From: a virus
Lineage: Duplodnaviria > Caudoviricetes
Strand: one strand, 5' to 3'
IMG/VR virus record: IMGVR_UViG_2974594478_000001
Span: 1-64,000 of that record
DNA length: 64,000 bases
Part shown: positions 1 through 57,871 of the stretch, piece by piece
How positions within the stretch are numbered: position 1 is the stretch's first letter
Layout of the letters: each line of letters starts with the position of its first letter
Made by a program: the position numbers and the translations under genes
Notes under the pieces: generated by a model
The model's database searches: none
Told to the model about the DNA's origin: nothing
What the model saw: the letters and a program-made list of their open reading frames with translations, nothing else

Positions 1-67
1 TAGCTATATAGGAAAATATTCTATAATATTTATGGTACTCTTTCCTTGGTTCAGAGGAGAAGAACCC

Positions 68-310
68 ATGCAAACAATGTTAGATTCCTATGATCCAGTA
101 AAGAACAAAGGTCTTCTTTGTTTTGAGTACCTACCCGGATCAATCCGTCTATTTCAGTTCCTTGGATCTAGAAAGAAGCACACCTTCTCTGTTCAATATG
201 GGAAGCAACTGGATCATGATCTTACCTACAGTGAAGCTTGTGCAAAGCTAGGTCAGGCTCTCCTTCATCATCTTTCCTGTGAGGGGAAAGATGATAACGA
301 GAGAGATTAA
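68..310 (+). CDS. Conserved N4-like terminal hypothetical protein
   Basis: GAGGAG at 54-59 favours ATG 68 (track starts at 32). The C-terminus YSEACAKLGQALLHHLSCEG resembles the small gene found at the right end of N4-like genomes. TATAAT at 22-27 lies upstream. Confidence 0.6.
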   Translation: MQTMLDSYDPVKNKGLLCFEYLPGSIRLFQFLGSRKKHTFSVQYGKQLDHDLTYSEACAKLGQALLHHLSCEGKDDNERD

Positions 311-372
311 TAGCACCCCCAACATACCTGCTGATAGACAGTGGTCACAGAATATATTGGGGGAACATGCTA
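311..372. repeat. Imperfect inverted repeat/hairpin
   Basis: TAGCA-CCCCCAACATA (311-326) pairs with TATATTGGGGG-aaca-TGCTA (353-372). Confidence 0.6.
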
Positions 373-420
373 AATATTATCATAGACATGTTCGGATGTA
401 GGGTTCTTTTACACCGGGGG

Positions 421-490
421 TACACCTACACTAAACACCCCCCCCCCATACACTACCCTACACCCACACCATACCCACCCCACTTCATAC
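421..490. repeat. 70-nt G-free C/A-rich tract with a C10 run
   Basis: No G between 421 and 490. C tracts at 438-447, 456-458, 463-465, 474-476 and 478-481. Confidence 0.9.
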
Positions 491-508
491 AGCCTTCGGC
501 TCTTGTAG
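491..508 (+). promoter_or_regulatory. vRNAP hairpin promoter P1 (early)
   Basis: AGCC-TTC-GGCT gives a template C-GAA-G triloop hairpin. A purine sits 10 nt after the loop, directly upstream of the gp1 homolog. Confidence 0.7.
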
Positions 509-532
509 ATCATAACCTCAGGAGACCTACCT

Positions 533-862
533 ATGGCTAACCTTCGTACCACTGTCACATCCCTGCTCGGCTCTATCCAGACCACAGCAGACTCAGCTTC
601 CAAGCTCATCGATTCCTCATCCAGAGGCATAGACATGCTGGACTCTTACATCCAGCAAGCACAATGGAAACAGAAACGTTCACACATCGCTGAACGAGAT
701 CAGTTCGAACAAGATCTCATCCGTGAATACACGGAACGTAATGCAGATGCAGAGCGTAAGATCCAAACCAAGCTAGACTCAGACCAAGTCTACGCAGCAA
801 TGTACAAATCCAACATGGACCGTCTCACCGAAAAGCTCAACGCTTTGAACTCGGAGAAATAA
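533..862 (+). CDS. N4 gp1-like early transcription cofactor
   Basis: 109 aa, helical, first gene behind the hairpin promoter, AGGAG RBS; size and position match N4 gp1. Confidence 0.7.
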   Translation: MANLRTTVTSLLGSIQTTADSASKLIDSSSRGIDMLDSYIQQAQWKQKRSHIAERDQFEQDLIREYTERNADAERKIQTKLDSDQVYAAMYKSNMDRLTEKLNALNSEK

Positions 863-872
863 CCACCCTAAA

Positions 873-895
873 GGAGAGGACTAACAATCCTCTCC
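873..895 (+). terminator. Hairpin after gp1 (putative terminator)
   Basis: GGAGAGGA-ctaacaa-TCCTCTCC; weak T tract. Confidence 0.45.
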
Positions 896-1014
896 AACTT
901 ATCCTCAATCCAACTAATGATGATAGTCAACTGAGAGTTCAACTCTCTCACTTTATTATCTTCACGTAGAGCGAAGCTCGTAGTGGGAGCGAAGCGAGAC
1001 ATTCGATAGGAGAA

Positions 1015-1161
1015 ATGACAATGTATCCTCAGATCGTACCAGACAACTCATTCAACAGATGGTTCATCGACTTCCTCTCAGGAATGGAACTCATCATGAT
1101 CCATTCCAATTATGATCGAGGATATTCCGATAACTATTTCGTAGAGACCATTGGTCTCTGA
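1015..1161 (+). CDS. Small hypothetical protein (48 aa, not in track)
   Basis: AGGAG at 1008-1012; open frame MTMYPQIVPDNSFNRWF...ETIGL. Confidence 0.6.
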   Translation: MTMYPQIVPDNSFNRWFIDFLSGMELIMIHSNYDRGYSDNYFVETIGL

Positions 1162-1176
1162 ACCAAGGAGATAACA

Positions 1177-1320
1177 ATGGATAACTATTACAAATGCAGT
1201 GATTGCAAACAGCCTCTTATATCTCGTCACGAGATCGAGGATAAACGATGCAATCGTTGTACTGACAAACTCATTCAACGTTCCAATGAACGTAGAGAAT
1301 GGGATCACTATCATTCCTGA
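1177..1320 (+). CDS. CxxC-x14-CxxC zinc-finger microprotein (47 aa, not in track)
   Basis: MDNYYKCSDCKQPLISRHEIEDKRCNRCTD...; AAGGAG RBS. Confidence 0.7.
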   Translation: MDNYYKCSDCKQPLISRHEIEDKRCNRCTDKLIQRSNERREWDHYHS

Positions 1321-1337
1321 ACCAAGGAGAACTCATC

Positions 1338-1538
1338 ATGTTCATACTCATGGGCGTAATCAAATATGAAGGTGACTCATTCCTTGGAATGTTCACCTCA
1401 TTAGAGAAAGCTAATGCTGCATATCTAATGATCGAGAAAACCAAGAAGTATTACGATTGGTTTGAGATCCTAGAATGCACACCTGACGAACCTTATCACG
1501 AGTCAGAACCTGAGACGGTGTTCTCATCTGAACCTTAA
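1338..1538 (+). CDS. Hypothetical protein
   Basis: AAGGAG RBS supports ATG 1338 within track ORF 1299-1538. Confidence 0.6.
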   Translation: MFILMGVIKYEGDSFLGMFTSLEKANAAYLMIEKTKKYYDWFEILECTPDEPYHESEPETVFSSEP

Positions 1539-1554
1539 ACCAAGGAGATAACTC

Positions 1555-1746
1555 ATGAAAATGAGGGATCTAATTGAAAAGCTTGATACTATTGCTGAGC
1601 TTAAGAAGCGAATAGCAAACCAAACTCACTTTAGAGATCAAGCTAGATTCCACGAGAATATGTCAGATCGTGTTGAACGATTAACCAATCAAATCAATGA
1701 ACTAGAGGGACAACTTCAAGATCTAATGGATGAGGATATCGAATGA
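1555..1746 (+). CDS. Small coiled-coil protein
   Basis: Track ORF, AAGGAG RBS, heptad-like sequence. Confidence 0.6.
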   Translation: MKMRDLIEKLDTIAELKKRIANQTHFRDQARFHENMSDRVERLTNQINELEGQLQDLMDEDIE

Positions 1747-1892
1747 GCATCTATCGTATCTCATCTCATTCTCCCAAGGAGAAACGTGTCATCAAGTCCT
1801 GCGAGTCTTGTAAGCAGAGACTTCAACCTCATGAACAAACGATCTGCAATGATTGCAGACGTAAACAGCAACTCAGAATGAGAGGCTATTAA
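1743..1892 (+). CDS. CxxC-x11-CxxC zinc-finger microprotein (49 aa, not in track)
   Basis: ...KSCESCKQRLQPHEQTICNDCRRK...; ATGA overlap with the previous stop. Confidence 0.65.
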   Translation: MSIYRISSHSPKEKRVIKSCESCKQRLQPHEQTICNDCRRKQQLRMRGY

Positions 1893-1916
1893 TTCTAACA
1901 TAGAGGAGAACATAAG

Positions 1917-3030
1917 ATGTCTAAGTATCTGGCAGGATACGGACTTCTACTCATTGCAATCGCTACATTCGTAGCAATCTCGCCTCTCAAACCAGCACGA
2001 ACATATATGCTGGTCCAGATCCAGAATGATGCACAGATCGTACTCCATAGGAATATGTCTGTGACCAGATGTAGTCTGACGAAGAGGCAATATCCCAATT
2101 CTCATTGTGTTCAGAACTTGCTCACAAACAAGCAAGCGAGGAACTAACAATGAAAGCAATACTTCTCATCATCATCGTAGGTGGAAGTCATAGAGTAGAA
2201 GCTATCGAGATTCCTCTATCCAGCTACGAACATTGTATGTCTATCGCAGAACAAACAGGCAAAACCATTGCCGAAGAACTCAGTCACTATGTCTATTCAG
2301 TAGCAACTGAATGTATAGATCAAGGAGAATGAACCAGTGAATCCCAGTCTTACAGAGTATCTCGTATGCAATGGATTCGTCCTTGGTCTCATTGCAATCA
2401 TAATCACTGACAATCCAGTCAGTGATATCTTAAGAGCAGCAATTCAACTCTATCTCATGTAGGAGATCATGATGACCAGTATCACTGGCACGTTCTATTC
2501 ACCGTCAGCGATACTGTTCATCGCTGCATTCATATTGCTTCTAATGACAGTAATGCTCATCAATGAAGCTAAAATCACCGCTTATAGATATAGCGTCCAA
2601 AGCAAAGTTTTCCTGTGGGGAACTATAGGTTTGATGCTGATGTCTGTGGTGTCCATCGTTATACTAGCGATAGGGATCCTGTGATGCTTAAGAGGATCCT
2701 AAAAGAGCTAGTAGGAGTAGCAATTCTACTATTCGGATATGTGGGACTACCTTGGATAATTGGTATCCTTGGTGTCTCTGGGCTTGTCATGATGTTTTGA
2801 ACCAAGGAGAAATACACATGCCTCAATGGCTTATCGTCGCTATCAGTATTTTATGGTTGATCCATTTCCTGTGGGCAATTCTCAGCACTACAGCAACTTA
2901 CGTTCATAACAACAATGAAATCACGGTATATCTCAAAGGCAAAATGGCTCTGAAACGTTGGGTTATCATTGTTAATGTACTCACTATCCCATTCACCATT
3001 TTCTGGTGGTCCTTCATTATCTTCAGTTGA
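1917..3030 (+). CDS. Run of small, mostly hydrophobic/membrane ORFs (1917-2147, 2150-2332, 2337-2462, 2469-2684, 2684-2800, 2818-3030)
   Basis: Tightly packed with AGGAG-type RBSs or stop/start overlaps; hydrophobic stretches in most. Confidence 0.6.
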
Positions 3031-3047
3031 ACCAAGGAGATACACAC

Positions 3048-3398
3048 ATGGTGATTTACGACCAAGAGATCTTTAAGAAATTCAAAGCCTTATCTATTCA
3101 GCATGTAAGTGAATTGAAGGTAGGTGATACCATCTACAGCAATCTCACTCCCACAATGGGTGTTATTGCCAAGCTTCAAACACATGCTGAGCATTATGCT
3201 GATGAGGGTCTTGAGACATCTGATACTAACCCAGAGATTCGTTGGGTTATCTTTGAAGACGGATCTGCTGAATCCCTTAATGATCGCAATGTGACTAATT
3301 CCTATAATCCTTGGATGTTCTTCAAGGATAAGGAGACCATGCTGAAATGCAGGGAAGAACTCAAAGTAGGCTTCACTCCAGAACCTTATGACGATTAA
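3048..3398 (+). CDS. Hypothetical protein, possible SH3-like N-terminal barrel
   Basis: AAGGAG RBS; LKVGDTIY...GVI pattern. Confidence 0.55.
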   Translation: MVIYDQEIFKKFKALSIQHVSELKVGDTIYSNLTPTMGVIAKLQTHAEHYADEGLETSDTNPEIRWVIFEDGSAESLNDRNVTNSYNPWMFFKDKETMLKCREELKVGFTPEPYDD

Positions 3399-3408
3399 GG
3401 AGATACAT

Positions 3409-3801
3409 ATGCACAGCGTAATCAAATCACTTGAACACCACACCATCGAGAAGCTCAAAGGAAATGATGAGCATTTCTTTCTCAAGACACTGAGCTTCGA
3501 ACAGATGCAGCTTCTTCATGCATGGTTGTCATGCCATGCTGACCGTCCTCAGAATGAGATCATTATTGATCGAGCTATGGCACCTGAATGGTTGCTGATG
3601 ATTCTGGCAGGACAGAAGATCAATGCAATCAAGGAAGTTCGTAGACGGTTGGAATTTGAAGTAATTTACGAAAACACACACTACGATAAGGGTGCTAAAA
3701 TCCAACCGGGACTGAAGAATGCCAAGAACTTCGTTGAGGCAATGATTGAATGCATTGTCCCAGATAATTCCGTCGCTGAATTCATTAACATCAGCGAGTA
3801 A
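3409..3801 (+). CDS. Protein with ribosomal bL12 (L7/L12) C-terminal-like domain
   Basis: GQKINAIKEVR...GLKNAKNFVEA matches the bL12 CTD signature KxxxIKxVR...GLKEAKxxVE; RBS at 3397-3402. Confidence 0.65.
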   Translation: MHSVIKSLEHHTIEKLKGNDEHFFLKTLSFEQMQLLHAWLSCHADRPQNEIIIDRAMAPEWLLMILAGQKINAIKEVRRRLEFEVIYENTHYDKGAKIQPGLKNAKNFVEAMIECIVPDNSVAEFINISE

Positions 3802-3803
3802 AT

Positions 3804-3824
3804 AGCGCCTTCGGCGCTTATGGC
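3804..3824 (+). promoter_or_regulatory. vRNAP hairpin promoter P2
   Basis: AGCGCC-TTC-GGCGCT followed by TAT-GG (+1 G at 3822); N4-type geometry; upstream of the gp2 homolog. Confidence 0.85.
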
Positions 3825-3880
3825 GGTCATGGCAGTGACCGTCTCATCTATCAATCCATGATCCAAAGGAGATTAATATC

Positions 3881-4288
3881 ATGGCTCTCGATTTCACTGG
3901 TGCATTTGGTGGTTCTAACGCTCCTCGCTCTGGCAATGCCCAGAATCAGGAACGCCCTAAGACTCAGATCTGGTTGAACGTTGGCTACGAAGTCACTGTT
4001 CAGGGTGAGAACGGTCCTGAAACCCGTTTCATCAACCTGCCTGTTGGCATCCCGGTCGATACCACTGACAAGCTGGAACTGCGTGGTCAGAATGCTGATT
4101 GGAACAAGTTCCAGTCTGCTCGGAACGACTTCCTTGAAATGCTTCAGAAGCATGGTGCCAAGATGGCTCCGGGTGCTGAGGAAATCGTCAAGGGTCTCGT
4201 CGTCAAGATCAAGCGCGTTGCTGGTCCTGTCGAAGTAGACGGCGACACCAACGAATACAGCATGGCGAATTCGATCAGCTTCGGTTGA
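3881..4288 (+). CDS. drc: N4 gp2/Drc-like ssDNA-binding RNAP II activator
   Basis: KTQIWLNVGY...FINLPVGIPVDT matches N4 gp2 motifs (KAQFWLNIGY, FISLPTGIPLDT) as recalled; early position. Confidence 0.85.
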   Translation: MALDFTGAFGGSNAPRSGNAQNQERPKTQIWLNVGYEVTVQGENGPETRFINLPVGIPVDTTDKLELRGQNADWNKFQSARNDFLEMLQKHGAKMAPGAEEIVKGLVVKIKRVAGPVEVDGDTNEYSMANSISFG

Positions 4289-4320
4289 TCGTACCGCAAT
4301 TTCAGCACGTAACACTTTAG

Positions 4321-4358
4321 AGCCTCATCCTCACTTAGAGGGTGAGGCTTCATTTTTT
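4321..4358 (+). terminator. Rho-independent terminator
   Basis: AGCCTCATCCTC-actta-GAGGGTGAGGCT then TCATTTTTT. Confidence 0.8.
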
Positions 4359-4494
4359 CCTCCGATAGATAAGCATTGTTTGACCCCCAAGAAACCTCTA
4401 CTATGGATTCTACTTACTAAAGACCAAAGTAGAGATTTTAGCTCTTTTTCGCGAAGAGCACCTAAAGCCTGTCGATAGATAAAAAGGGAGGCAA

Positions 4495-4515
4495 AGCACC
4501 TTCGGTGCTGATGGA
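4495..4515 (+). promoter_or_regulatory. vRNAP hairpin promoter P3
   Basis: AGCACC-TTC-GGTGCT followed by GAT-GGA (+1 G at 4513); same geometry as P2. Confidence 0.85.
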
Positions 4516-4562
4516 TTCAACCTCTCCCGCTGAGGCGGGATTAGACAAATGGGGAGACAAAG

Positions 4563-4907
4563 ATGAAGATTATTGCAGAGATCATTATCGATGAAGATCA
4601 AGCTAAGAATCGATTGATTCACATCACTGATGACATTCGATTCGCTATAGCAGGAGCATTGAATCTTTTCCGAGATGGTAACGGGAGACACTCAGCAATC
4701 ATTGATTATGAAGTTGACGTTAAAATAGTAGAAGATTGAACCAAGGAGTGAAATATGTGGGGAATCTATGCACTCACAGAATACAACGAAAAAGACATCC
4801 TAGTCCAAGTTGTTGTTGGTACTTATCAGGATGCAAAAGACATTTGTAATGCATGGAATGCAGCAGTCTCAGATAAGAATTATTATGTAGATGAAATAAC
4901 ACCTTAG
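4563..4907 (+). CDS. Two small ORFs not in track (4563-4739, 58 aa; 4755-4907, 50 aa)
   Basis: GGAG/AAGGAG RBSs; joined by the stop-ACCAAGGAG junction. Confidence 0.6.
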
Positions 4908-4924
4908 AACCAAGGAGAAGTGAA

Positions 4925-5146
4925 ATGGAGTACAAAGTAGGAGATCGAGTACAAGACAAAGCTGGATTTACTGGAACCATTACCGATGCATCAGAAGGTT
5001 ATAATGGATTCCAAGAGTATGAAGTTACATGGGACATTTCAGGATGTACCTCTGACATGTTGGTGAATGAAATTGAACCAATGAAAGAGGGACAAGATAA
5101 TCCACAAACACAGAATGACATCCATAAGAAACAATTTGGTGATTAA
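4925..5146 (+). CDS. Small SH3/KOW-like protein
   Basis: YKVGDRV...GTI...YEVTW pattern. Confidence 0.5.
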   Translation: MEYKVGDRVQDKAGFTGTITDASEGYNGFQEYEVTWDISGCTSDMLVNEIEPMKEGQDNPQTQNDIHKKQFGD

Positions 5147-5158
5147 AGGAGAAGTGAA

Positions 5159-5554
5159 ATGGCAGACACACTTCATACCGTACCAACCAAGCCGCTCACT
5201 AAAGAGGATAGGATTGAGCTTGGTCGCAAAGCTGTAGCTATCAATAAGGGTGAAGGTAAACCTGTTACCCAGATAGCTAGAGAAATGGGTATCTCAGATA
5301 AAACACTGGGATATTACATCACTGTCTATAAGAAATCTCTTCGAACCAAGAAAGAAGAGATGGCTGACTCTCTTCTCTATCCAGTTATGCGATCAGAGAA
5401 AACCTCATTGGTTAAAGTACCAAATGAGGAACTAGATAAACTGAGATCTGAAAATACAGACCTCAAAGAAAAGAATGCTGAGCTTCAACGTTCAGTGAAA
5501 GCTCTCCAGAATGTCATTCTCATACTAGGTCATCAACATTCAGAGGATGACTAG
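5159..5554 (+). CDS. HTH DNA-binding protein with C-terminal coiled coil
   Basis: VTQIAREMGISDKTLGYY helix-turn-helix; heptad tail. Confidence 0.7.
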   Translation: MADTLHTVPTKPLTKEDRIELGRKAVAINKGEGKPVTQIAREMGISDKTLGYYITVYKKSLRTKKEEMADSLLYPVMRSEKTSLVKVPNEELDKLRSENTDLKEKNAELQRSVKALQNVILILGHQHSEDD

Positions 5555-5556
5555 CT

Positions 5557-5802
5557 ATGAAGAAATTCCGTTGGGCTAAGAATCGTCCTGTTAAACCAGA
5601 CACAGACCCAATGCTCTCAGATTTGAGAGAGGAATTGCTCAATGACGATAGGACTTATTACCAGAAAGCCAATGCCTCTGGGATAGCTCCATCCACAATC
5701 AGAAACATCGTGAATGGTAAGACTCGTAAACCACAGGGACTTACCATCATGATGATCTACAAAGCATTGGGAATTGAATTCATTAAGAGGAGAAAGAAGT
5801 GA
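5557..5802 (+). CDS. XRE/Cro-like HTH protein
   Basis: ANASGIAPSTIRNIVNGKTRKP...IYKALGI. Confidence 0.8.
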   Translation: MKKFRWAKNRPVKPDTDPMLSDLREELLNDDRTYYQKANASGIAPSTIRNIVNGKTRKPQGLTIMMIYKALGIEFIKRRKK

Positions 5803-6943
5803 ATAACGATGCTGCAATAGAGTTTGAACGAGATCGTTTGGAAACTCTCAGATTATTGAGAGACAATATCGAAAGCAGAATCACAACCGTAATGAATAAT
5901 ATCAATTGGCTTAAACGACAGGATTATGAGGAATCCAAAAATGGCAAAGTCAACATTCAAGACAAGAATGAAATCCTATGAGATAGGAGATCCTATCGAG
6001 GTAGGTCATCCGAATAGGACGACACATACTGTGGATTGGGTTGAAGCAATCATTGTCAAACCTCACCCACTTACGGTCAAATATCAAGATGGTTCTGTGG
6101 AGGAGCTTCTACCAACGACACTCAGGAGGAAATCTGACAAGATCATGGAAGCTCTTGAACCAAAGAAACTCAGTGACCTTCCTGATGATGTGCTCAAGGA
6201 GATGTACCACAAAGCTCTTGTGGATATCATCAAGGAAGGGACTACCAAAACACCTAACGCTACAGTTAGGAGAATGATCAATATTGCTAAGGAAGCTCTA
6301 GGGGAGATTCCAATATGAAAGATTCATTCCACAAATACATGGAGGATCCAAAGATATTAACTTTGATTCTCGCTGCTCAACGAGTTTGTAATTCCATTAC
6401 AGAAGAACAAATTCACCAGATAGCAAATGCTCTGCCAGATACAGATCAAACTGAATTTGCTGCTGCAATGATTGATCTTGGTTATGCAACTCAAGACTTA
6501 GAACAGGAGTAACATATGGCAAGGAATCTACTTGAGACTATCACTGAACGAGCAATGAACTCCTTCAGCGGAGAGACAGATCAATTCCCAAACCATTGGT
6601 TTGATATTGCTGATAAGTTCAAACAGGAACTCATCACTGAAGGTCTCATCGCTAGTGCAACTCATGTTGACAAGCTTATTGATCAACAGAGGAGAATTCT
6701 CAAATGATCAAATGGCTATTTGGTCTCATTATCAAATCCCATAAGCCTATTAAAGAGCAATTGGCAGATGCTCAGGATCGTCTCTACGATCAGGAATACA
6801 AACGAGGCTGGGATTATGCAGTTCTTATTTGGGGCACCACTCCAGTTATGGTTGCCAAAATGGAACTCATAAAGGCAGCAGGAAATATAGAAACTGCCTT
6901 TGAAATCGCAATCTATGACTTCCTCAAGGAGAGAACTCGATGA
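5799..6943 (+). CDS. Five hypothetical ORFs (5799-5981, 5941-6318, 6315-6512, 6516-6707, 6704-6943)
   Basis: Packed with stop/start overlaps and RBSs; no family recognised. Confidence 0.6.
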
Positions 6944-7491
6944 AGGCATATGCAGGCATAGGCTCACGTAAAACTCCTCAACCCATTCTCGATATGATGA
7001 CCAATGCAGCAACTTGGTTACAAGATGCTGGTTGGATTCTCAGATCAGGTGGTGCTCATGGAGCAGATACAGCCTTTGAGAATGGAACCAAGGAAAAGGA
7101 AATTTATATCCCTTGGGGAACATTTAATAATCGTAAGCATGGTTTCAATGGTGCCATTGATATCAACAAGCTAGAGGAAAAAGATCTAGCTGCTGCCTTA
7201 CAGATCACCAAGCAATATCATCCTGCTTGGGAGAACTGTGCTCACTATGCACAAATGCTTCATACCAGAAATGTCTTCCAAATGTTTGGTAGAGATTTCA
7301 AGAACCCATCCAAATTCGTCCTTTGCTGGACTAAGGATGGAAAAGGTGGGGGTGGTACTGGTCAAGCTATCAGGATTGCTAAAGGCAATAACATTCCTGT
7401 GTTTGACCTAGGCAGACCTGACATAGAGAAAGTGCAGGAAGACTGCTTTAACTTTGTCAATTCATTCAAGGAGATGGTTAATGCAAATTGA
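6940..7491 (+). CDS. SLOG (DprA/Smf-like Rossmann fold) protein
   Basis: YAGIGSR, LRSGGAHGAD and GGTGQAIRIA...IPVF motifs. Confidence 0.8.
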   Translation: MKAYAGIGSRKTPQPILDMMTNAATWLQDAGWILRSGGAHGADTAFENGTKEKEIYIPWGTFNNRKHGFNGAIDINKLEEKDLAAALQITKQYHPAWENCAHYAQMLHTRNVFQMFGRDFKNPSKFVLCWTKDGKGGGGTGQAIRIAKGNNIPVFDLGRPDIEKVQEDCFNFVNSFKEMVNAN

Positions 7492-8097
7492 AACTGATTA
7501 CGTCTTCAAAGAAGAAGAAGTTAAAGAAGCAATCAGACAGTATTTGAATAACAAAACCAATGTTGCTTTTGAATCAATGGCAGGCATCTTTGTTGATAAA
7601 CATCAAAATGGAGAAATTACTGCTCGTGTTCGTTTGAGAAATCAGGAGATCAAATGAATGAACCAACTTAAGGTCACATGGCATTTCGATAGCGAAGGTA
7701 ATCGCCATACAGGTGCATCTTATATAGATGACCAAGGCTATCCTAGAGCTACACAACTCAATGGTCATCTCATGGTTCATGAGGTGAAAGCCAGTATTGA
7801 AGGATTCAGGAAACGATTAAAAGGAGCACAAGCATCATGATCTTCAAATATGGAGAAACTGAACTGGAAGATGGTCGCTATATCGTAGAGCTTACTTACA
7901 AATCTATGGATATAGCCAATAAGCAAGCTGTGGAAATCACAGTTACCAAGCGAGAAATAGCTGAATGTTATGACAATCAATGGATGCAAACAGGCGTAGA
8001 CTACGATGTCTGGCAATATGATAGATCCTTCAAGGATCTGGTTATTGATGTCAAAGCTAGTATCCATCTTGATGATTGCACATTAACGGAGATGTAA
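7481..8097 (+). CDS. Three hypothetical ORFs (7481-7657, 7658-7840, 7837-8097)
   Basis: Track ORFs with RBSs or overlaps. Confidence 0.55.
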
Positions 8098-8472: not shown

Positions 8473-8484
8473 GGAGACAAATCA

Positions 8485-48640: not shown

Positions 48641-51340
48641 TTAAGCATAGGCATTGGGTAGAGTCAGAGTCAATTCAGTGAAGCTATTCAACATATCATG
48701 AGACATGTTTGCTATGTCGCTTCCCGTCATCAGTGTTCTGGTGAGGAATGTATCCCCACTTTCCAAAAAGATGTTCGAAGAATCCAAGAACATATTTGGG
48801 TTGATTATGTTGTTAGCATAACCAATGTTCTCTGAATAGAGTTCAGAGATTCTCTCAGACTCCTTCTGGTAGTTATTCATAATGTCTCTACTCTCTGCTG
48901 CCATATCTTGAATAGATGATTGGACATAAGCAGAGTAACCACCAGAGACAGCATCTGTCAGTTTCAGGATATTATCCACTTTCATCAGATCTGCCCAGTT
49001 AAACTGGAAACCTGCTTGAAAGCCTTGGATAAAACCAGAGACAAACATTCCAAACAGTGCACCAAGAATGGGACCAAGGAATCCCAGATTCTTAGTAACA
49101 GCTTCAATGAGTGTGCTCAGCACCATAGCTGCAAGAGCATTCGCTACTGATCCGACAATAGCAGCAGTAAGACCGGAAAAGCCGAGAGCAGAACCAATAG
49201 CAAGATTAGAACCAAGGAGACCAAAGCCAGCACCACCTGTGAAAGCAACAGAGATAATGGCAATAACAATGACAAACAGGATCTTAAAGATCCCTCTCTC
49301 ATACCATCTCTGCTTCACAATCTGGTAGCAATTGAACAGGATAAAGCAGCAGGCAGTGGACATCTGTGTGCCAGCTATCAGTGATACAGCTTTATAGGTT
49401 GGGTAATGTAGAGGGACTACGAATCCAGATTCCTCTGTATCATCAAGAGCATCAGCTAGACTGGTATCAACAGACTTACCATTGTAGACGAAGTTCTTAT
49501 GCAACATCCCTTCAATGTTCATGACCTTATAGCTGTTAGCAGTAACCTGCCAATACAGCTTAGCTCTTTGAATTCTCAAAGGATCCTGTGGGATCTCTTT
49601 GTATCCACCTCCCGAAATAACCATTGTGGGTGGCATATTATAGGTATCTGTTGGAAGCTTCTCCAACCAGAACTCACCTACCTTGGCATCAGGCTTACTG
49701 AGACCAGCATGATCAGTTTCATAAAGAAAGTTCCAGTGGATACGGATATCAAAGTTCCGAGCTACTGAACCAGTGTTCGCCATCCGAATGATGTTAGAAG
49801 GTAGGACAGGTTTCGATGGAACAGACGGTTTTGGTTCCCCAAAATAAGGAGATCCAGAATTAGCCTGACCCTTCTGCCATTGATAGAACTCTTCCCGAGC
49901 CTCATCATAGGCTACACGCTTGACTTTCCATTCATTGAAATTGGCAAGTGAGGATGTCTGAAGATCCATCAGATTTCTGAAGAAGTAATAGAGATACTTC
50001 TTGCAAGCATTTTCTTTCACATTCAGTGACACACCAAACATTGCATAAGCAAAGTCAATGTCATCCAGATCATCATTGTCTTCAATAGATTCCACAAGCT
50101 TATCAAAGCTTGCTTTCATTGCTTTTTTGTAACCCTTCTTAGCTTCACCATAAGCTACAGGTTCATGAGATTCTGAAAGAAACTCATTCTCAATACGTAC
50201 TGGAATGAATGGGAAGAACTGACCAGTCAATTCATTATCTGCTGGAACCAAAGAATCCAGAACAGCATTACCGCTACCAATCCGGTAGATGTAATATTTC
50301 AAAGATGAGAATCCATTATTGATGATGTCCTGAGTATCTACTCGATACCATTTGTCATAGTTAATGAATTCAGATGTTACAGTTGTAGTAGTGGTCTTAG
50401 TAACGCCACCACCCATATCTTCCTCAACAACTGTCACTTCTACATCTTCATCAATGAAACCAAATTGATGAAAGAACATGTAGGATTTTGTTGAAGACAT
50501 AACTTCAACATTACCAACTACCACAGCACCGTTGTAAACAGTCTGCTGGTATTCAGCATCTCGATCCAGATAATCGACAAAGCTATGTGTATCCGTAGTG
50601 GTATCACTACCGGGAGATCCATCCGAATAGGTCACAACAACTCTGGTTGTCTCAGTGAGATCCACTCCCACATGAGGTGTCAAGACATTGGATACATCAG
50701 TCCATCCCGTCGTAGAGGGGAATGGATCCGCTTCCGTTAGTGGAATCGTGGAACCAGTTACAATTGGGTCAGCTTGGTTCTCAATGGCAGAGACGTAACT
50801 CACATAGAGATACTTCGCATTGATATTGAAGCTAGGGGATGATGGAGTAATAAAGGTTGTTGAGAGATCAGCAAAGGTGATCTTTATCTGGTTGGTATTT
50901 TCCAGATAATCAGCAGTCCATGCTGTATCAAACAGTTCTGGATAATTATCCAGCATCCATTTCTCAGCCCAGTAGGTGTAATCAGCATCACCGATTTCAG
51001 CATTCTGAACCACTGCTACTTCGGGGGGAACGATGCCAGGAATCTGATCAGGAATCAGTGTACCATCCACAGAGGAGAGATCGGTAATGAACCCTGTAGG
51101 GATACCAATCTCGTCATAATTCCCACTGTTCACTGCCCAGTTATAAAAGCTTCTAAGCCTGATACCGGGACCACCTAGATAACCTTTCCGAAACGTATCC
51201 CCCATACCTTCCTTGGTTCCAGAGAGAATATTTCTCGTGACCAAGGATCTTAGGTAATTAGGACGATCATCCTCATCCCCTGCCAAGTTATAAGCGACAG
51301 AGGAGACATAGGTTTTCTTACTGGAAGAGAACAGTCCCAT
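48641..51340 (-). CDS. Tail/structural protein (N4 gp53-like)
   Basis: MGLFSSSKKTYVSS N-terminus; C-terminal WYERGIFK plus hydrophobic segments; synteny. Confidence 0.8.
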   Translation of the reverse strand: MGLFSSSKKTYVSSVAYNLAGDEDDRPNYLRSLVTRNILSGTKEGMGDTFRKGYLGGPGIRLRSFYNWAVNSGNYDEIGIPTGFITDLSSVDGTLIPDQIPGIVPPEVAVVQNAEIGDADYTYWAEKWMLDNYPELFDTAWTADYLENTNQIKITFADLSTTFITPSSPSFNINAKYLYVSYVSAIENQADPIVTGSTIPLTEADPFPSTTGWTDVSNVLTPHVGVDLTETTRVVVTYSDGSPGSDTTTDTHSFVDYLDRDAEYQQTVYNGAVVVGNVEVMSSTKSYMFFHQFGFIDEDVEVTVVEEDMGGGVTKTTTTTVTSEFINYDKWYRVDTQDIINNGFSSLKYYIYRIGSGNAVLDSLVPADNELTGQFFPFIPVRIENEFLSESHEPVAYGEAKKGYKKAMKASFDKLVESIEDNDDLDDIDFAYAMFGVSLNVKENACKKYLYYFFRNLMDLQTSSLANFNEWKVKRVAYDEAREEFYQWQKGQANSGSPYFGEPKPSVPSKPVLPSNIIRMANTGSVARNFDIRIHWNFLYETDHAGLSKPDAKVGEFWLEKLPTDTYNMPPTMVISGGGYKEIPQDPLRIQRAKLYWQVTANSYKVMNIEGMLHKNFVYNGKSVDTSLADALDDTEESGFVVPLHYPTYKAVSLIAGTQMSTACCFILFNCYQIVKQRWYERGIFKILFVIVIAIISVAFTGGAGFGLLGSNLAIGSALGFSGLTAAIVGSVANALAAMVLSTLIEAVTKNLGFLGPILGALFGMFVSGFIQGFQAGFQFNWADLMKVDNILKLTDAVSGGYSAYVQSSIQDMAAESRDIMNNYQKESERISELYSENIGYANNIINPNMFLDSSNIFLESGDTFLTRTLMTGSDIANMSHDMLNSFTELTLTLPNAYA

Positions 51341-52188
51341 TAGTTGAAATCATTCTCTGTCTTAATCTTGGTGAGCACTTGATCCACACTGGCATTGGTA
51401 AAGCCTGTTGGAGCAACAAGACCTTCATCAATTGTCTTCTGTGTGATCCATGCATCTACAAACAGCTTGCCTGCCTTGACCTCAGCATCTCGCTGATAGG
51501 AGGTAATCTGTTGGGTATAGAGATCTTTCTGCTTCCCAATGGAACCAGTAATGGTAGTCACACCATCCGATCTGGTGTTCATGGTCTGAGCACGAGCAGC
51601 TTCCATTTGTTCAACGACAAGCTTCTTCTGTTCTTGGGTCAGTTCCGTCTGAGCCTTCATTTGACAATAGGTCTGATCTTCCGTTGCCAGTTTCATAACA
51701 GTCAAAGCGTAAGTCGCTTCCGAGTTACGAGCTTGGTACTCCATTGCAATGGCTTGGAGCTTAGCAACTTGGAGATTGACCTTGGCAGTGACCAGTTCCA
51801 CCTGTGCGGTCTGTGCTTGTGCCTGAGCCAGTACACCCTGCCAATATGCTTGGTCTTTCCCAAGTAGATATTGAGCAGCAGTACCAAGAGCACCTTGGAA
51901 AGCTGCAATATAGGCTTTTGTGTATTCTGCACCGGAAATTCTATTTGCCTGAAATTCACCCTTAAGGTGATTGGCAATGCTTTCCATAAGTGCATCGAAT
52001 GTACCTGTGCCATTGATCTGGCGAGTGGTGAGATCCTCATTCGTCAAAGGATCCGGCAAAGCAACTGCCGGAAGATCTGGGAGATCAAACTCTGGACCAG
52101 ACAAATCGATATCAGGAAAGGTAATCTCTTTCCCAAGCAGAATGTCTGTCAGAAGTTCTTTAGCAAGGGTCTCACCACCGCAGGACAT
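51340..52188 (-). CDS. Structural protein (N4 gp54-like)
   Basis: GTGTFDALM, GKQKDLYTQQITSYQRDAEVK, WITQKTIDEG. Confidence 0.8.
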   Translation of the reverse strand: MSCGGETLAKELLTDILLGKEITFPDIDLSGPEFDLPDLPAVALPDPLTNEDLTTRQINGTGTFDALMESIANHLKGEFQANRISGAEYTKAYIAAFQGALGTAAQYLLGKDQAYWQGVLAQAQAQTAQVELVTAKVNLQVAKLQAIAMEYQARNSEATYALTVMKLATEDQTYCQMKAQTELTQEQKKLVVEQMEAARAQTMNTRSDGVTTITGSIGKQKDLYTQQITSYQRDAEVKAGKLFVDAWITQKTIDEGLVAPTGFTNASVDQVLTKIKTENDFN

Positions 52189-52198
52189 ATATCACCTA

Positions 52199-52822
52199 TT
52201 ATTCACCAGAGGTCGAACCAGAAGCAGCTTGTTGAGCCTTAAGATCGGCAAGACCCTTCTCATCCAGTTGAGGAAGGACTTCAAGAGCGAACTCACGAAC
52301 CCAGTTAGCTTGAACCTCATTGGTTCCACGCTTGGATTTACGTGTCTTGATCTGAAGGAATTTCCGATCCTTCATCATATTATAGATGCAATAGGGAACA
52401 TGATACCCATTGTCAGTCTGTTCACCAAAGGGAACAAACTTACGAACCGTACCCAAGTAGCTATTGGCAATAGTGAAAATCTCACCGGGAAGATTCTTCT
52501 TCTTTGGATCCAAGCAGGTAACACGAATACGGACCAGCTTCATCTGTTCCTTCTTCAGACGTGCACGAATCTGCATCTTCGTCTCAGGTTTAGCAGCTAC
52601 TTCTTCTGCTTCCTCAGCTTGCTGTTCAGCAGCTTGTTCCTGCTCCTTAGCGTCACCATCCAGCTTTTCTTGAATACGAGCCTTAAGAGCATCAACTCCA
52701 ATGTTGTTGGAGAAGGTGATTCCCATCATACGAGCACGCTGCTTCAGCATATCCAGTTCAGTGAACTGAACTTCTTCAGTCTCAGTTTCTTCACCACTCG
52801 TTGTATTAAACAGATCCGACAT
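52199..52822 (-). CDS. N4 gp55-like protein
   Basis: LKQRARMMGITFSNNIG, KLVRIRVTCLDPKKK, KFVPF. Confidence 0.8.
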   Translation of the reverse strand: MSDLFNTTSGEETETEEVQFTELDMLKQRARMMGITFSNNIGVDALKARIQEKLDGDAKEQEQAAEQQAEEAEEVAAKPETKMQIRARLKKEQMKLVRIRVTCLDPKKKNLPGEIFTIANSYLGTVRKFVPFGEQTDNGYHVPYCIYNMMKDRKFLQIKTRKSKRGTNEVQANWVREFALEVLPQLDEKGLADLKAQQAASGSTSGE

Positions 52823-52844
52823 TGGGTTTACCTATGATTTGTTA

Positions 52845-52872
52845 AAGAAAAGGGAGGGTATTAACCCTCCCT
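52845..52872 (-). terminator. Terminator after the major capsid gene
   Basis: AGGGAGGG-tattaa-CCCTCCCT; TTTTCTTT follows on the minus strand. Confidence 0.8.
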
Positions 52873-52896
52873 CCAAGAAACAATCTAATCACTAGA

Positions 52897-54099
52897 TCAG
52901 ATTGGTGCAACAGTCTTGATAAGACCGATACGCTCTGGGCGCTTAACAAGGATACCGTAGTACCACTTGATGGACGAGAACCCAGTCTCACCGTAAGGAT
53001 CATTACGGTCAGCAGTTTCCTTACCGGGCATCTTGGTCAGAACGGAGAACTTAACCGTCTTACCATCGGTTTGGAAACCAATCGTGGTCCACGAATCATC
53101 ACCGAGGACAAGCATCGGGAAGATATCATAGTGATCCGTACCAGCTACATCCGAGGCACGATAACCCGGATTCGTAGCTTCAGCAGCACCGGCACCTGCC
53201 CAATGGAGCATTTCCGGTACAACAACGATACGGAATTCGAAGATCGAACCGATCTCACCATTCAGGATCGTACCAGCATCACCATATTGCTGAACCGGAA
53301 TGAAGGCAGGATTGTTGAATGGATCAACCATCTTGCGAACCACTGGATCCAGTTCGGAACCAATGAACATCACACGACCAGCAGCAATGGTCTTGGTATC
53401 GATCAGACGCGAACCAGTGATAACCTTGGTCTGCTTCGGAGTCCGGTTATCCGTGAGGATCTGAGACAGACGCATCAGGTTGTCATAGTCAACAATCGAA
53501 GGCGTTGCACCTTCAGCAGTGACTTCCGAATCCTGAGTCGCAGCACCAGCGTAAACAATGACACCAGCAGCAGCGAGAAGATCCTTCTGGAGAACTGCTT
53601 CGGTAAGCTGAACAGCACCATTCATAAGCTCACGAGACAGGTGCTCCTTAAGACCATCATCCGAATCAAAGTCCAGAGATTCCTGAGTAAATTCAGTGAA
53701 GAAACCGAACTTCTCAATGGAACCTTCACGCTCCAGACGAGTGAAACCAACACGGTTCACACGACCACCATTCTCAGTGAGAGTTGGAAGCTTGGAGGTG
53801 ATCGTACCAATATCCTTGGACGAACCATAGAGATTACCATTGGCAATGGTAACACCATTGGCATCAATACCTTGGTCATTGACGTTACGTTCATCAAGCA
53901 GAGGAACATATTCATAGACCTTGATGGTCTTACCAAAGTGCTTCGGCATACCAATGGTCGAAGCCAGTGGCATGAAGAACTGCTCTTTACGGGATTCGAT
54001 AATCGCATTCTTCAGCCAGAAGAATGTATTCATCTGATCGGAACCAGCACCATCAATCGTGGATTTGGACCCATCAATAGGGGCATTATAGTTCAACAT
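52897..54099 (-). CDS. Major capsid protein (N4 gp56-like)
   Basis: 400 aa; [54 protein letters not shown]. Confidence 0.96.
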
Positions 54100-54111
54100 G
54101 GGATATTAACC

Positions 54112-55323
54112 TCACAATCTACCTTTGAATTTCTGAAGAAACTCATCATCCGACATAGCCAACGGATTCTTGAATTCTTCAGCCTTGTTAGGGGAAGTCT
54201 TCGTGGGAGAAGCAGCCCTAGCTTTATCCCCGTTACTTACTGCTGGCTTGGGAGTGGCAACCCGTTCTGTTACTACAGTTGGTTGTTTCACTTCCTGTTT
54301 TGATGGTTGGAAAGCATTTCGCTTTACCATGTCATCACCAACCAGCTTATAAGCTTGGAGGAATGGAACATTGGACGGAATCACACCGAGCATCTTCTGT
54401 CGGTCCATCTCCGTGACGATCTGTTGATACACACCGTTTTCACGTTGAGTCTGGATTACCGACAAGAGTTCAGGTTGTTTCCAGAGGGCTTCCTTACTAA
54501 CTTGATCCCATGTCGTATTGATGTCTTGAAGTGTTTCTCTACCGTTTGGTTTGGACTGAATGTCTTCCAAAGCAGTAGTAAAGTTCACTTCTTCATCAGT
54601 GACACTGTGATTGCTAGGCGTGTAAGCCGGTTCTTCACTAGTGTTAATGTCAAGTGGATCAACTCCACTATCCTTCACTAACTTCTTAATAGCATCAGGA
54701 TTCTTTTTATCCAAGTCTATTAAGTAAGAAAGTTTAGCTTCATCCAACAAATTATTGTTTTGAAGCATAGTGAGCAACTTTCTCTGAGGTGCCCACTGTT
54801 GCATTTGTCGAGTATAGTTCGCTCCCATCTGCATAAGCTTAATTGCTTCATCAGGAGAACGTAGTTCAATCATTCTTCCGTTAGCTTTGAACGGAGCCAT
54901 GATTTGATTGTAGAGTTCCTCGTAATTCGGAGGAGTTTTTTCTTCTGCTTTCTCAGATTCTTTGTTTTCTGATCCAGTAGCAGAAGGGTCTTTTTCCTTC
55001 GTAGGATCTTCCTCTGCTTTTGCCTTATCAGCTTCAGCAGTTTTATCCCCAGAGGCTTCTGTGGACTTGTCAGCTTCGTCAGGCTTTGCATTGGGATCAG
55101 TCTCCTCTGTGGAAGTCTTTTCTTCCTGAGACTTATTTTCTTCAGAACCAGTAGAAGGAGTTGTCTCAACTTCTTGGGTCTGTGTCTGTTCCTGAGTTTG
55201 CTCCTGTACAGGAGGTTCTACAACAGAGTCAGACTCCCCACTTGGGGGAGTTGCTCGTTGCTTCAGGAAGTCTTCATCGGAAAGCTCAAGAGGATTACTC
55301 ATTATCAGCTTCCTCTTCAGCAC
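54112..55323 (-). CDS. N4 gp57-like protein
   Basis: APFKANGR...LMQMGANYTRQMQ, LIDLDKKNPDAIKKLVKDSG. Confidence 0.82.
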   Translation of the reverse strand: MLKRKLIMSNPLELSDEDFLKQRATPPSGESDSVVEPPVQEQTQEQTQTQEVETTPSTGSEENKSQEEKTSTEETDPNAKPDEADKSTEASGDKTAEADKAKAEEDPTKEKDPSATGSENKESEKAEEKTPPNYEELYNQIMAPFKANGRMIELRSPDEAIKLMQMGANYTRQMQQWAPQRKLLTMLQNNNLLDEAKLSYLIDLDKKNPDAIKKLVKDSGVDPLDINTSEEPAYTPSNHSVTDEEVNFTTALEDIQSKPNGRETLQDINTTWDQVSKEALWKQPELLSVIQTQRENGVYQQIVTEMDRQKMLGVIPSNVPFLQAYKLVGDDMVKRNAFQPSKQEVKQPTVVTERVATPKPAVSNGDKARAASPTKTSPNKAEEFKNPLAMSDDEFLQKFKGRL

Positions 55324-55636
55324 GAAGCTCGGTCAGATTCTCTTCAATATTCGGGAGATCTGCTGCTGCATAATCACCCTGTTGAATCATCACATTAAGC
55401 CAACGCTTCAGATGCCCAGCAGCTTGTGCCATGTTCAATGCATCAGCACGTTCCTGTGGACCCAGAGAAGGGTCAGAAGACAGGTGCACAAGGCGAGCAC
55501 TCTCAGTAACGAAGAAACCTTCGACAATCAGCTTACGGAATTCGTAGTTATCCTTAAGCTTGAGTGCCATGTCTCGCTGCTTAATTGCTTCAACAGCGGT
55601 AGACTTAGCGTATTCAAGTTGTTCAAGATCAGACAC
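55295..55636 (-). CDS. N4 gp58-like protein
   Basis: EFRKLIVEGFF; synteny between portal and gp57. Confidence 0.75.
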   Translation of the reverse strand: MSDLEQLEYAKSTAVEAIKQRDMALKLKDNYEFRKLIVEGFFVTESARLVHLSSDPSLGPQERADALNMAQAAGHLKRWLNVMIQQGDYAAADLPNIEENLTELRAEEEADNE

Positions 55637-55648
55637 GTTAGGGTTTCC

Positions 55649-57871
55649 TTAAAGATTAAGGTTAGGGTTTAAGGCTGGATCCAATCTTGGGTCAAATTGA
55701 TTGGAACCAATGTTAAGTCGAGGATCAGGTCTTTGCTCAGACTGACCACTCAAAGCATTGAAACCTATTGCAGCATCAACACTTGGTTTACTTTCACCTT
55801 CTTTTTTAGGGGAAAGCAAGCTCTTTGTTATTTCTAGTTCTTGGTTGCCCTTAGACTGTGCTTGTTGTTTCTCCAATTCACGAGCATGTTTCGTACCAGT
55901 TTCTGTTTCAACAAAGTCCAAGTTCTTTTGATCAGCAGATGCGTCAGCTTCCTTAGCCTTGGCATTGTTGAGAGCGACCTTGGATCTGAGTTCTTCAATC
56001 TCAAGCTGGAGCTTTTGGATTTCAAGCTGTTTAGCCTGTTGAACCAATGGATCTGGTTGAGGTTGATAAGCACGAATACGATGAGCGAGTTCAGGCATTC
56101 TCTTGAGATCAGCGATCTCAGCAAGAATCATCTTGGTCATCTCCAGATCCATATTCGGACCCATAGTCTGAAGCATGAATCCAAGATCTTGAGCCTTGGC
56201 ATTGTCCACTTCAGCGGTGGAGATATCCACTTCAAGGTCAAAGTTACCAGCAAGATCTTCCCGGTTAACCGTAACAAACTCTTCATTGGTGATACGGATG
56301 ACTTCCTTGTCAGAGAGGAAGACACCATTCATAGCAATGAGCTTCTGACCAATCTGAGTCATACCCTTGGCGAGACGACGTAGAATTGCCATCTCACGTT
56401 TGGAAGCAGCATCCAGAACACCACGGATACCAGCAGCAACATCACCATAAGCTTCACCAGACATCCCACCAGAAAAGCTCTTAACACCTGTCAGTGCTTC
56501 TGCTTCTTGGTTCTGAAGCGTAAGCATGGTCAGAGCAGACTGAGGAATCTCAGGATACTTATGCTCCATATGCCCTTGTTGTGGTGGCATGTTCGGATTG
56601 AATTCATAATCCTGTCCATTCTCAAACCGACGACGGTTCAAGACATCCAGCATACCCTTGGCAAAACCTTGTTGAGCGTTGGCAGATCGACCAAGCAAAT
56701 CAATCATGCCTCTGGTGACAGCACCAAGGACATTTTGGTTATCTTCCAGAAGCTCAGCATCAGTCTCACCATAGACTTCACGCTTCTTGGGAAGATAGGG
56801 AACCACGACAAAGGGAGGTTTTTCATCCGGGAAGGGGTTCATCTCCATGCGGATAAGAACATCACCGATCCAAGTAGCAACAAATGGAACCAGTGTGTCA
56901 TCACCATTCACGTCATAATAACCCCAATACTCATAAGCTACGACACGCTTACGAAGCACATCCTTGAATTGGAATGTGTCTGGAGTTCCTGATGCATGGT
57001 CGGGATTTGTAGGAGGAGCAGCATTCTCCCAGAGAACTGCATCCAGATTCTTATAGCGATCTGGTTCCATAAGAAGTTCTGCCTTGGAAGTCTCAAAGGA
57101 GACAATGACAAAACGTGCCTTATCAAGATCCCCTTCACAGGATGGATCGATATAGACATTGGTTGGATTCAGAACTTGAAGAGTTGGACGATTGTCCAAA
57201 ATCTTCTCTTGTTCAATTTCAGAAGAACCAGTCTGAACAGCAACTGTGACCTGACCAGACTCTTCAAAGTAATCCACAGCAGCTTTGATCTCTGGTGGAA
57301 CCGTCTCTTCATATTGACGAGGATTCTCACCCTTAAGAGCAACTGCTTGATCCAATGCAGCAATTTCCTCTTCTGTCTGAGGAATTTGATGTTGGAAGAC
57401 AGGCGCTTGAATCTTTACCTTAGTGGTTGTTCGGCACCATCCCAGACGAACGATACAAGTTCCTTCATCGACTGTAGCACGAACGAAATCGTCAATGAAT
57501 TTAACTCGATTCAGCTTGGTTCTGAATTGATGATTGAGAACAAGTTCATTCTGCTTGGCAGCAGGACCATCCTCAAAAGTGACAGGAGATATCTTGAACA
57601 GCTTATTGGAACCAAGGAATGGTTCCGTCAAAGCAGAATATCTCCACTCAGCCTGACGACGAATCAGCTTAGGTTGAACAGAGCTTCGACCTTTGACCTT
57701 AGCAGGCTTTGCCTTGCCCTCTACATTGAGTAGATCGGTCCATTTCCTGATCTTGGAAACCTGATCATCATGAGAAGTCTTTGCAGCTTCCAGATCATAT
57801 TTAAGATCCAGAATGGAAGGTTCCTTCTTCCACTGGGTCAACTTCTTCTGATGCAGATTAACGGTTTCCAT
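55649..57871 (-). CDS. Portal protein (N4 gp59-like)
   Basis: 740 aa; [50 protein letters not shown]. Confidence 0.95.

Follow-up and report, generated by a model that had tools for sequence, protein, structure and literature searches.

GAACCA, a six-base word selected throughout the genome of an N4-like phage and its relatives, and its possible role as a start signal for a phage-encoded primase

Why should a phage genome repeat one short word, on both strands and inside as well as between its genes, far more often than chance allows? The question is raised by the IMG/VR record IMGVR_UViG_2974594478_000001 (Caudoviricetes), of which we analysed the stretch from position 1 to 64,000 (the window, hereafter), the first 64 kb of a single-contig genome of 75,239 bp in total. 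A first-pass annotation, made from the letters alone, had pointed to an over-represented GAACCA(AG) motif in the window and had proposed that it behaves like a selected signal. We find that the hexamer GAACCA (TGGTTC on the opposite strand) is a DNA-level signal, selected at synonymous and non-coding positions on both strands, that it is shared by most of the N4-like phages that we sampled, and that a protein encoded by the phage very probably reads it. Which protein this might be is a harder matter, and we tentatively put forward the primase homologous to N4 gp43.

The extended form of the word, GAACCAAG, was counted by eye in the annotation at 45-50 copies, where about 2 were expected. An exact search of the window gave 51 copies against 2.55 expected from dinucleotide-preserving shuffles (standard deviation 1.65, maximum 7); all the coordinates that had been listed are exact matches, and the approximately 28 copies of GAACCA reported for the first 10 kb turned out to be exactly 28. 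Over the whole genome the 8-mer occurs 60 times and the hexamer 223 times, and each is the commonest word of its own length. Markov models of order 3, 4 and 5, suggested at the outset as a check, predict 14.4, 24.7 and 38.4 copies of the 8-mer, respectively, all of which are exceeded by the 60 observed. The letters of GAACCAAG are also identical when read backwards.

Preferred codons had been expected to explain part of this excess, and they do. When genes were called by strand block and synonymous codons were shuffled within each gene, the 8-mer was expected 21.9 times (standard deviation 2.9, z 13.2) and the hexamer 103-109 times (z 16 against 103), i.e. codon usage can supply 103 of the 223 hexamers, but the excess persists with a z of 13-17 after synonymous shuffling. 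We also applied a more stringent shuffle, in which third positions are swapped among codons sharing the first two bases and the following base, and which keeps all dinucleotides and most trinucleotides. It yielded 33.0 copies of the 8-mer (z 8.4) and 146.5 of the hexamer (z 10.2), and among all hexamers the z of GAACCA against the shuffles is the highest in the genome. An excess that vanished under codon shuffling would have spoken for codon preference; it remains under synonymous and dinucleotide-preserving shuffles alike.

The 60 copies of the 8-mer are distributed over sense frames 0, 1 and 2 (2, 11 and 14 copies), the three antisense frames (11, 5 and 5) and intergenic DNA or gene boundaries (12), and the excess is seen in five of the six frame classes, in both arms of the genome and in both orientations. 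At coding positions where the encoded protein would permit it, GAACCA is carried in 98 of 220 cases (45%), although codon use predicts only 27.7 (13%); TGGTTC is carried at 103 of 217 such positions, and the 8-mer in sense at 27 of 42, with 2.7 expected. The approximately 4.0 kb of intergenic DNA wholly contains 16 copies of GAACCA, and this density of 4.0 per kb is approximately eight times the value of about 0.47 per kb predicted by base composition. The early description of a word that occurs in more than one frame, in intergenic DNA and on both strands is thus borne out by the frame and intergenic counts. Neither of the two outcomes named in advance as refuting it, loss of the excess under shuffling and lack of intergenic enrichment, was observed with the shuffles applied here. 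The processing site that it also suggested is unlikely at the RNA level, because sense and antisense copies are enriched alike.

The unit under selection is shorter than the 8-mer. From its own 7-mers, GAACCAAG is predicted 55 times (113 x 85 / 174), compared with 60 observed; the 7-mers account fully for the 8-mer and the signal therefore builds from the hexamer core. Indeed, the position profile holds no information upstream of the first G, and downstream there is just a purine-rich tendency. A second, weaker form, GATCCA, is also in excess in this genome (140 vs 99). What is selected is thus the hexamer GAACCA; GATCCA is a weaker variant of it, and GAACCAAG is the extended form preferred in this lineage. 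Of the GAACCA(AG) motif as first described, the core holds as the selected part, while the AG tail is a lineage habit, reinforced here by a near ban on CCWGG sites to which we return below.

The same word recurs across the relatives of this phage. We compared 12 N4-like genomes, the present phage and eleven more, with G+C contents from 41 to 54% and hosts in seven genera (Escherichia, Klebsiella, Erwinia, Achromobacter, Pseudomonas putida, Rhizobium/Sinorhizobium and Dinoroseobacter). Nine of them have GAACCA as their most frequent hexamer, and in the other three it ranks 2nd to 6th, with 146-223 copies where 31-38 are expected; N4 itself has 220 against 31. Under the codon shuffle, an approximately twofold excess (z 9-20) was found in all 12 genomes, and under the stringent shuffle GAACCA ranks first in nine of the 12 and in the pooled data (ratio 1.58, z 21.6), where the words that come next overlap it. 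One-letter variants of GAACCA are flat (0.8-1.25 times the expectation), except for GAGCCA (1.56) and GATCCA (1.34). Intergenic DNA of the 12 genomes, 67 kb in all, holds 175 sites. The check in related schitoviruses that had been called for therefore has a clear outcome: N4 and most sampled Schitoviridae share the word.

Lineages differ in the details of the word. At the seventh position, the rhizobial, Achromobacter and P. putida phages have A where the enterobacterial phages have G, and because of this clade difference GAACCAAG tops the present genome while GAACCAGT tops that of N4. In the Pseudomonas phage LUZ7 the corresponding words are AAACCA/AAGCCA instead, and in Vibrio phage 1.188.C and Acinetobacter phage Presley they are TAACCA/TATCCA/TAGCCA. 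These words share the pattern N-A-D-C-C-A, in which the first base depends on the lineage, and they suggest that within the family the signal has drifted at its first and third bases. The hexamer enrichment analysis gave no comparable word in T7 or in the distant Alteromonas phage AD45-P2. The latter is enriched instead, under the codon shuffle, in words containing CTAG (AACTAG 188 observed and 73 expected, ACCTAG 134 and 58, CACTAG 115 and 55), a tetranucleotide that is normally rare. The word thus follows phage lineage and not host.

In blastn alignments, orthologous positions kept the word 2-3 times as often as they kept hexamers overall. We restricted a test of synonymous sites to positions where every overlapped codon encodes the same amino acids in both genomes. 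Compared with RHph_X2_28B, 71% of the words (40/56) were retained as against 40% of other hexamers (Fisher p 3e-6); with two Demetervirinae, RHph_I1_6 and RHph_Y2_6, the values were 59% (27/46) and 31% (p 2e-4), and with KP8, JWAlpha, N4 and Zuri, 76% (47/62) and 24% (p 2e-17). Judging from these alignments, individual sites are under purifying selection. GAACCA occurs about once per 340 bp when both strands are counted, with a mean spacing of 513 bp on the plus strand and 972 bp on the minus strand. On the plus strand of the present genome the spacing has a coefficient of variation of 0.78 (p 0.002) and no gap is longer than 1742 bp, and on the commoner strand the coefficient is below 1 in all 12 genomes. 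Against a null drawn solely from positions that permit the word, 9 of 24 strand tests of evenness gave p<0.05. The sites are spaced more evenly than chance, in a manner suited to discontinuous synthesis.

Independence from the host together with drift by lineage leads us to conclude that some phage-encoded protein very probably reads the word. One protein stands out as a candidate, the homologue of N4 gp43 (dns), which alone among the conserved proteins contains a type of domain known for recognizing short words in a template. It comprises an MCM-like AAA+ helicase (residues ~20-455), an AEP primase-polymerase domain (~480-650) and a PriCT-1 helical bundle (669-722), an unusual order of MCM-like helicase, AEP and PriCT-1 with no zinc finger and with four scattered cysteines. 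Its C-terminus matches Pfam PriCT_1 (6e-11) and the protein matches the PHROG 'DNA primase'. A search of PDB sequences with gp43 returned no match, and the relationships given here came from fold searches. The full-length AlphaFold model (mean predicted local distance difference test score, pLDDT, 93.5) has an N-terminal part resembling MCM helicase subunits. The C-terminal 280 residues modelled alone (pLDDT 96.8) have their nearest structural neighbour in a cyanophage enzyme, namely the AEP domain of S-2L PrimPol (Foldseek E 9.6e-4; VIA Z 8.7, root-mean-square deviation 3.4, 136 aligned residues), followed by RepB', Prim-PolC, CAPP and the AEP domains of poxvirus D5/E5. The PriCT-1 bundle also has a match, weak as helical bundles go, in the domain with which the ColE2 Rep primase binds its origin (VIA Z 6.1, root-mean-square deviation 2.6, 62 aligned, 23% identity). 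In an alignment of 71 homologues, D542 and D544 (a D-x-D motif) and R577, all in the C-terminal half, are conserved in at least 90% of the sequences, and the consensus carries the H of YTTKSHT, equivalent to H569 of the gp43 homologue; in the N-terminal half the Walker A lysine, a DE pair and an RR pair are conserved.

We hypothesize that GAACCA could be the start signal for the primase of the gp43 homologue. Of the readings considered here we find this one the most probable, but we hold it tentatively and rate it somewhat below an even chance; both the choice of this enzyme over other phage proteins and the point at which priming would start are inferred. In such a scheme the helical bundle would bind 5'-TGGTTC-3' on the single-stranded template and primer synthesis would begin at, or just 5' of, TGGTTC, so that the base following GAACCA would be the first one copied. 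This would explain why that base is usually a purine (73% of 2180 sites, vs 56% after other NNNCCA words). Dense and evenly placed words would allow discontinuous synthesis to start every few hundred bases on either strand. The drift of the word by lineage is what a reader encoded by the phage and co-evolving with it would be expected to leave. A stronger version, in which an MCM-AEP primase requires all six bases, the genome has been rewritten at about half of the permissible positions into a private 'priming code' that supplies starts every few hundred bases, and word and enzyme co-evolve (GAACCA, AAACCA/AAGCCA and TAACCA/TATCCA in different subfamilies), appears to us rather doubtful.

Several observations weigh against a role in priming. 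All core genes of the family co-occur with the word, and presence or absence therefore cannot single out the primase. The known primase sites of T7 are not enriched in T7 under the stringent shuffle (TGGTC 141 observed and 131 expected, GGGTC 94 and 90, GTGTC 85 and 79), which means that enrichment is not a general mark of primase sites. For most of the AEP primases studied so far, 3-4 bases are enough (PMC8718748). Unrelated hexamers such as CAGCAG and CATTGG also reach 1.6-1.7 times the codon-shuffle null, hence part of any excess is general sequence texture. Lastly, the strand polarity that might be expected of lagging-strand starts is not robust. The raw counts of GAACCA are biased (145 to 78 in this genome): in each of the genomes, the sense strand of the early genes has 1.4-1.9 times as many copies as the other strand, and the bias extends into the late genes. 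However, after codon normalisation the polarity holds in early and middle genes only (odds ratio 4.7 vs 2.6), while late genes have none (3.5 vs 3.8), and intergenic copies are 57 to 25 in the early arms but 48 to 45 in the late arms. Because normalisation removes the late-arm polarity, the enrichment is best taken as essentially two-stranded; the early-arm surplus of sense copies comes partly from copies fused to ribosome-binding sites (GAACCAAGGAG).

A different conserved protein of the phage could of course read the word, and all the evidence for a phage-encoded reader serves such a protein equally well. It might belong to the recombination module, where the exonuclease, the Sak4-like annealase and a RusA-like resolvase could use GAACCA as a self-marker or loading site in the manner of a phage-private Chi, or the word might be a nucleation site for gp2/Drc-type cofactors of the phage RNA polymerases or for the single-stranded-DNA-binding protein (SSB). 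The replication and recombination genes are as conserved as the primase, and the roughly symmetric enrichment of the late arm after normalisation also fits duplex binding or recombination. Yet the Pfam and PHROG matches of these proteins are to generic nuclease, annealase and SSB families, none known for reading a specific short word; sites of the Chi type are oriented relative to DNA ends and lie much further apart, and the polarity seen here is not robust; and an even spacing of a few hundred bases suits repeated initiation better than end protection. We regard this alternative as unlikely, and nothing in our analysis points to the helix-turn-helix proteins, Drc or SSB that had been named earlier as possible readers. 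It is also conceivable that there is no reader at all, and that GAACCA is a compositional habit of the family arising from codon-pair preference, neighbour-dependent mutation by the shared DNA polymerase or inherited protein motifs. Markov models of order 4 and 5 do absorb much of the excess (180 of 223 hexamers and 38 of 60 8-mers), amino-acid sequence and codon use alone give about three times the zero-order expectation, and the 1.6-1.7-fold excess of other hexamers over the codon-shuffle null is of the sort that such a habit would leave. Nevertheless, a habit of this kind seems improbable, given that the enrichment extends to sense, antisense, multiple frames and non-coding DNA, that the word ranks first under a null keeping dinucleotides and most trinucleotides while its one-letter variants are flat, that synonymous sites inside it are kept 2-3 times better even across very distant relatives, that its spacing is evener than chance, and that it varies by lineage although the DNA polymerase is shared.

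Two further explanations can be set against the same data. About ten copies of GAACCAAGGAG, most of them in the first 10 kb and at least five immediately before a start codon (Table 1), look like an extended ribosome-binding site for early genes, and the intergenic copies between early genes favour the sense strand, as noted above. But only about 13 of the 223 hexamers fall in the 30 nt that precede a called start; the others are intragenic or antisense, and antisense and intragenic copies are equally enriched. By the standard anti-Shine-Dalgarno sequence, GAACC is not complementary to the 3' end of 16S rRNA, and N4 and the enterobacterial phages carry GAACCAG(T), which has no Shine-Dalgarno overlap. 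A translation signal is thus very improbable as the explanation of the word, in line with the early view that it is not only a ribosome-binding site, and the overlap is most easily understood if two signals have been fitted into the little intergenic DNA available. We give still less credence to the idea that the word is directed at the host, as a host Chi, a DNA uptake sequence or a side effect of restriction avoidance. Avoidance of CCWGG and GGCC does push GAACCAGG toward GAACCAAG and raises CCAAG. However, phages from seven unrelated host genera have this hexamer as their top word; RHph_X2_28B, with 154 CCWGG sites, still has GAACCA and GAACCAAG as its top words, so that restriction avoidance is not their cause, and in JWAlpha, with 223, GAACCA is still at the top. 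The Chi of E. coli is a different octamer, yet N4 has its 220 copies of GAACCA. For the hexamer, the host-directed reading is already contradicted.

The avoidance itself is pronounced. CCWGG is nearly banned from the genome (6 sites vs about 115 expected under the codon shuffle), as is GGCC (5 vs about 84), which suggests restriction pressure from a soil host. GAACCAGG would contain CCAGG, a CCWGG site, and is excluded here for that reason; avoidance nonetheless explains only part of the AG tail, and in this genome. Among relatives, the CCWGG counts range from those just given for RHph_X2_28B and JWAlpha to a single site each in the Erwinia phage Rexella and the roseophage DFL12phi1. Decay of 5-methylcytosine from CCWGG to CCAAG was considered as a source of the AG tail and set aside, as it leaves GAACCA and the relatives that keep CCWGG unexplained. 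The genome has 24 copies of ACCGGGA(G) where about 6 are expected; they lie inside genes on both strands, and the word is most simply a replacement spelling (CCGGG) where CCWGG is banned. Runs of AAAA/TTTT are also strongly depleted (397 vs 781). The LexA box of Alphaproteobacteria (GAAC-N7-GAAC) was rejected as an identity for the word, the position profile having no second GAAC at the needed spacing. Three of the phage tRNAs (Pro-UGG, Asn-GUU and Gln-UUG), which are found again in N4-like phages that infect different hosts, read CCA, AAC and CAA, the in-frame codons inside GAACCAA. We nevertheless rejected tRNA supply as a cause, because the word holds just about 10% of CCA and about 7% of AAC codons.

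The features mentioned are collected in Table 1. The genome is laid out like that of coliphage N4 and is of a lytic-type phage. Small early genes and replication genes occupy the plus strand to approximately 35.6 kb, the virion RNA polymerase follows on the minus strand, structural genes on the minus strand as well reach approximately 70.4 kb, and beyond them lies a short plus-strand block carrying five tRNA genes. Its closest named relatives are the Rhizobium/Sinorhizobium phages RHph_X2_28B and X3_15 (Schitoviridae, Xoxocotlavirus), with 74.6% nucleotide identity in the polymerase gene, and the public sequencing runs that contain sequence of this phage are soil metagenomes. An open reading frame runs off both contig ends (window 2-310 and genome 75030-75239); therefore the assembly is probably circularly permuted with a collapsed terminal repeat, and position 1 is probably not the true genome end. 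Two inverted copies of GAACCAAGG form a strong hairpin with a U-rich run after it, just ahead of the gene for an RNA polymerase subunit (9067..9876), and this structure looks like a terminator.

Table 1. Positions of the word, of candidate readers and of other features discussed (window coordinates unless stated otherwise).
Feature	Position	Strand	Remarks
GAACCAAG, 51 exact copies (33 +, 18 -)	45..58802	both	exact match
Core hexamer GAACCA/TGGTTC, 183 copies	47..63981	both	37.3 expected
N4 gp43 (dns) homologue, candidate reader	30427..32634	+	70.8% identity to N4 gp43
Exonuclease, replication/recombination module, alternative reader	29502..30488	+	PHROG 2139 'exonuclease', E 7e-136
Sak4-like annealing protein, alternative reader or context	32701..33441	+	Pfam/PHROG matches
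N4-type SSB, alternative reader or context	33470..34249	+	Pfam/PHROG matches
GAACCAAGGAG fused to Shine-Dalgarno	1160..1170, open reading frame start 1177	+	AAG tail overlaps AAGGAG
GAACCAAGGAG-type Shine-Dalgarno fusions (site/start)	4738/4755, 4907/4925, 17543/17554, 32685/32701	+	
Two inverted GAACCAAGG copies, hairpin then U-rich run	9015..9047	+	-23.7 kcal/mol, z -2.8 vs shuffles
Virion RNA polymerase, 3,422 aa	35615..45883	-	
ACCGGGA(G), 22 of 24 genome copies	e.g. 3705, 12188, 16466, 45794, 63969	both	
Five tRNA genes (Pro-UGG, Asn-GUU, Thr-UGU, Gln-UUG, Arg-UCU)	genome 70996-73025, outside window		

N4 has been a model phage for fifty years, and full-text searches of a library of open-access papers found no description of the word, the matches being primers or unrelated papers; in the paper on Drc, TGGTTC is present only within a primer. 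If GAACCA is indeed a primase start signal, it would be the first case in which the long recognition site of a primase visibly shapes a whole genome, and the specificity of primases could be predicted from sequence alone across a phage family. It would also constrain the recoding or engineering of N4-like phages, several of which are candidates for therapy. Should the private 'priming code' hold, phage replication would be insulated from host DNA. Even with another reader, the conservation at synonymous sites amounts to a strong and unexplained layer of selection in N4-like genomes.

The closest parallels to the proposed signal are found among helix-bundle AEP primases. The helical bundle of pRN1 ORF904 binds the template word 5'-GTG-3' and that of the phage NrS-1 PrimPol binds 5'-TTTGGTTA-3' and 5'-GTGR-3', with synthesis starting just outside the word in both, while the template word of BcMCM/TthPrimPol is 5'-CCTG-3' (PMC8718748). 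The present phage has a comparable enzyme, whose AEP primase carries a helical bundle at the C-terminus and is fused to a helicase. The bases TGGTT are common to the NrS-1 site and to the template word TGGTTC proposed here, and a start outside the word, as in pRN1 and NrS-1, fits the purine preference right after GAACCA. There are also differences. The words of the AEP primases studied are mostly of 3-4 bases or are single sites of the origin type, and none has been reported to occupy about half of the possible positions in its own genome; unlike these enzymes, the gp43 homologue has the helicase first and the primase last, and the helicase is MCM-like.

Other short words invite comparison as well. 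The T7 gp4 primase recognizes 5'-(G/T)(G/T)GTC-3', and TGGTC, from which pppACCA is made, is one base off TGGTTC. It too is a phage-encoded primase reading a short template word, but it is a zinc-finger/TOPRIM enzyme unrelated to the AEP fold of gp43, and its sites are not enriched in T7. Chi, KOPS and DNA uptake sequences are, like GAACCA, short asymmetric words that occur far above chance across coding DNA through selection at the DNA level; unlike it, they are host-specific, strongly polar and 10-100 times sparser. The start-associated sequences and stoperators of mycobacteriophages are 13-bp sites, present in tens per genome and tied to gene starts or to the direction of transcription, and sites of this kind are bound by the repressor in temperate phages. 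They are likewise phage-wide short repeats, some of them fused to ribosome-binding sites as is the GAACCAAGGAG subset here, whereas more than 90% of the GAACCA copies lie within genes, in both orientations, in a phage of the lytic type.

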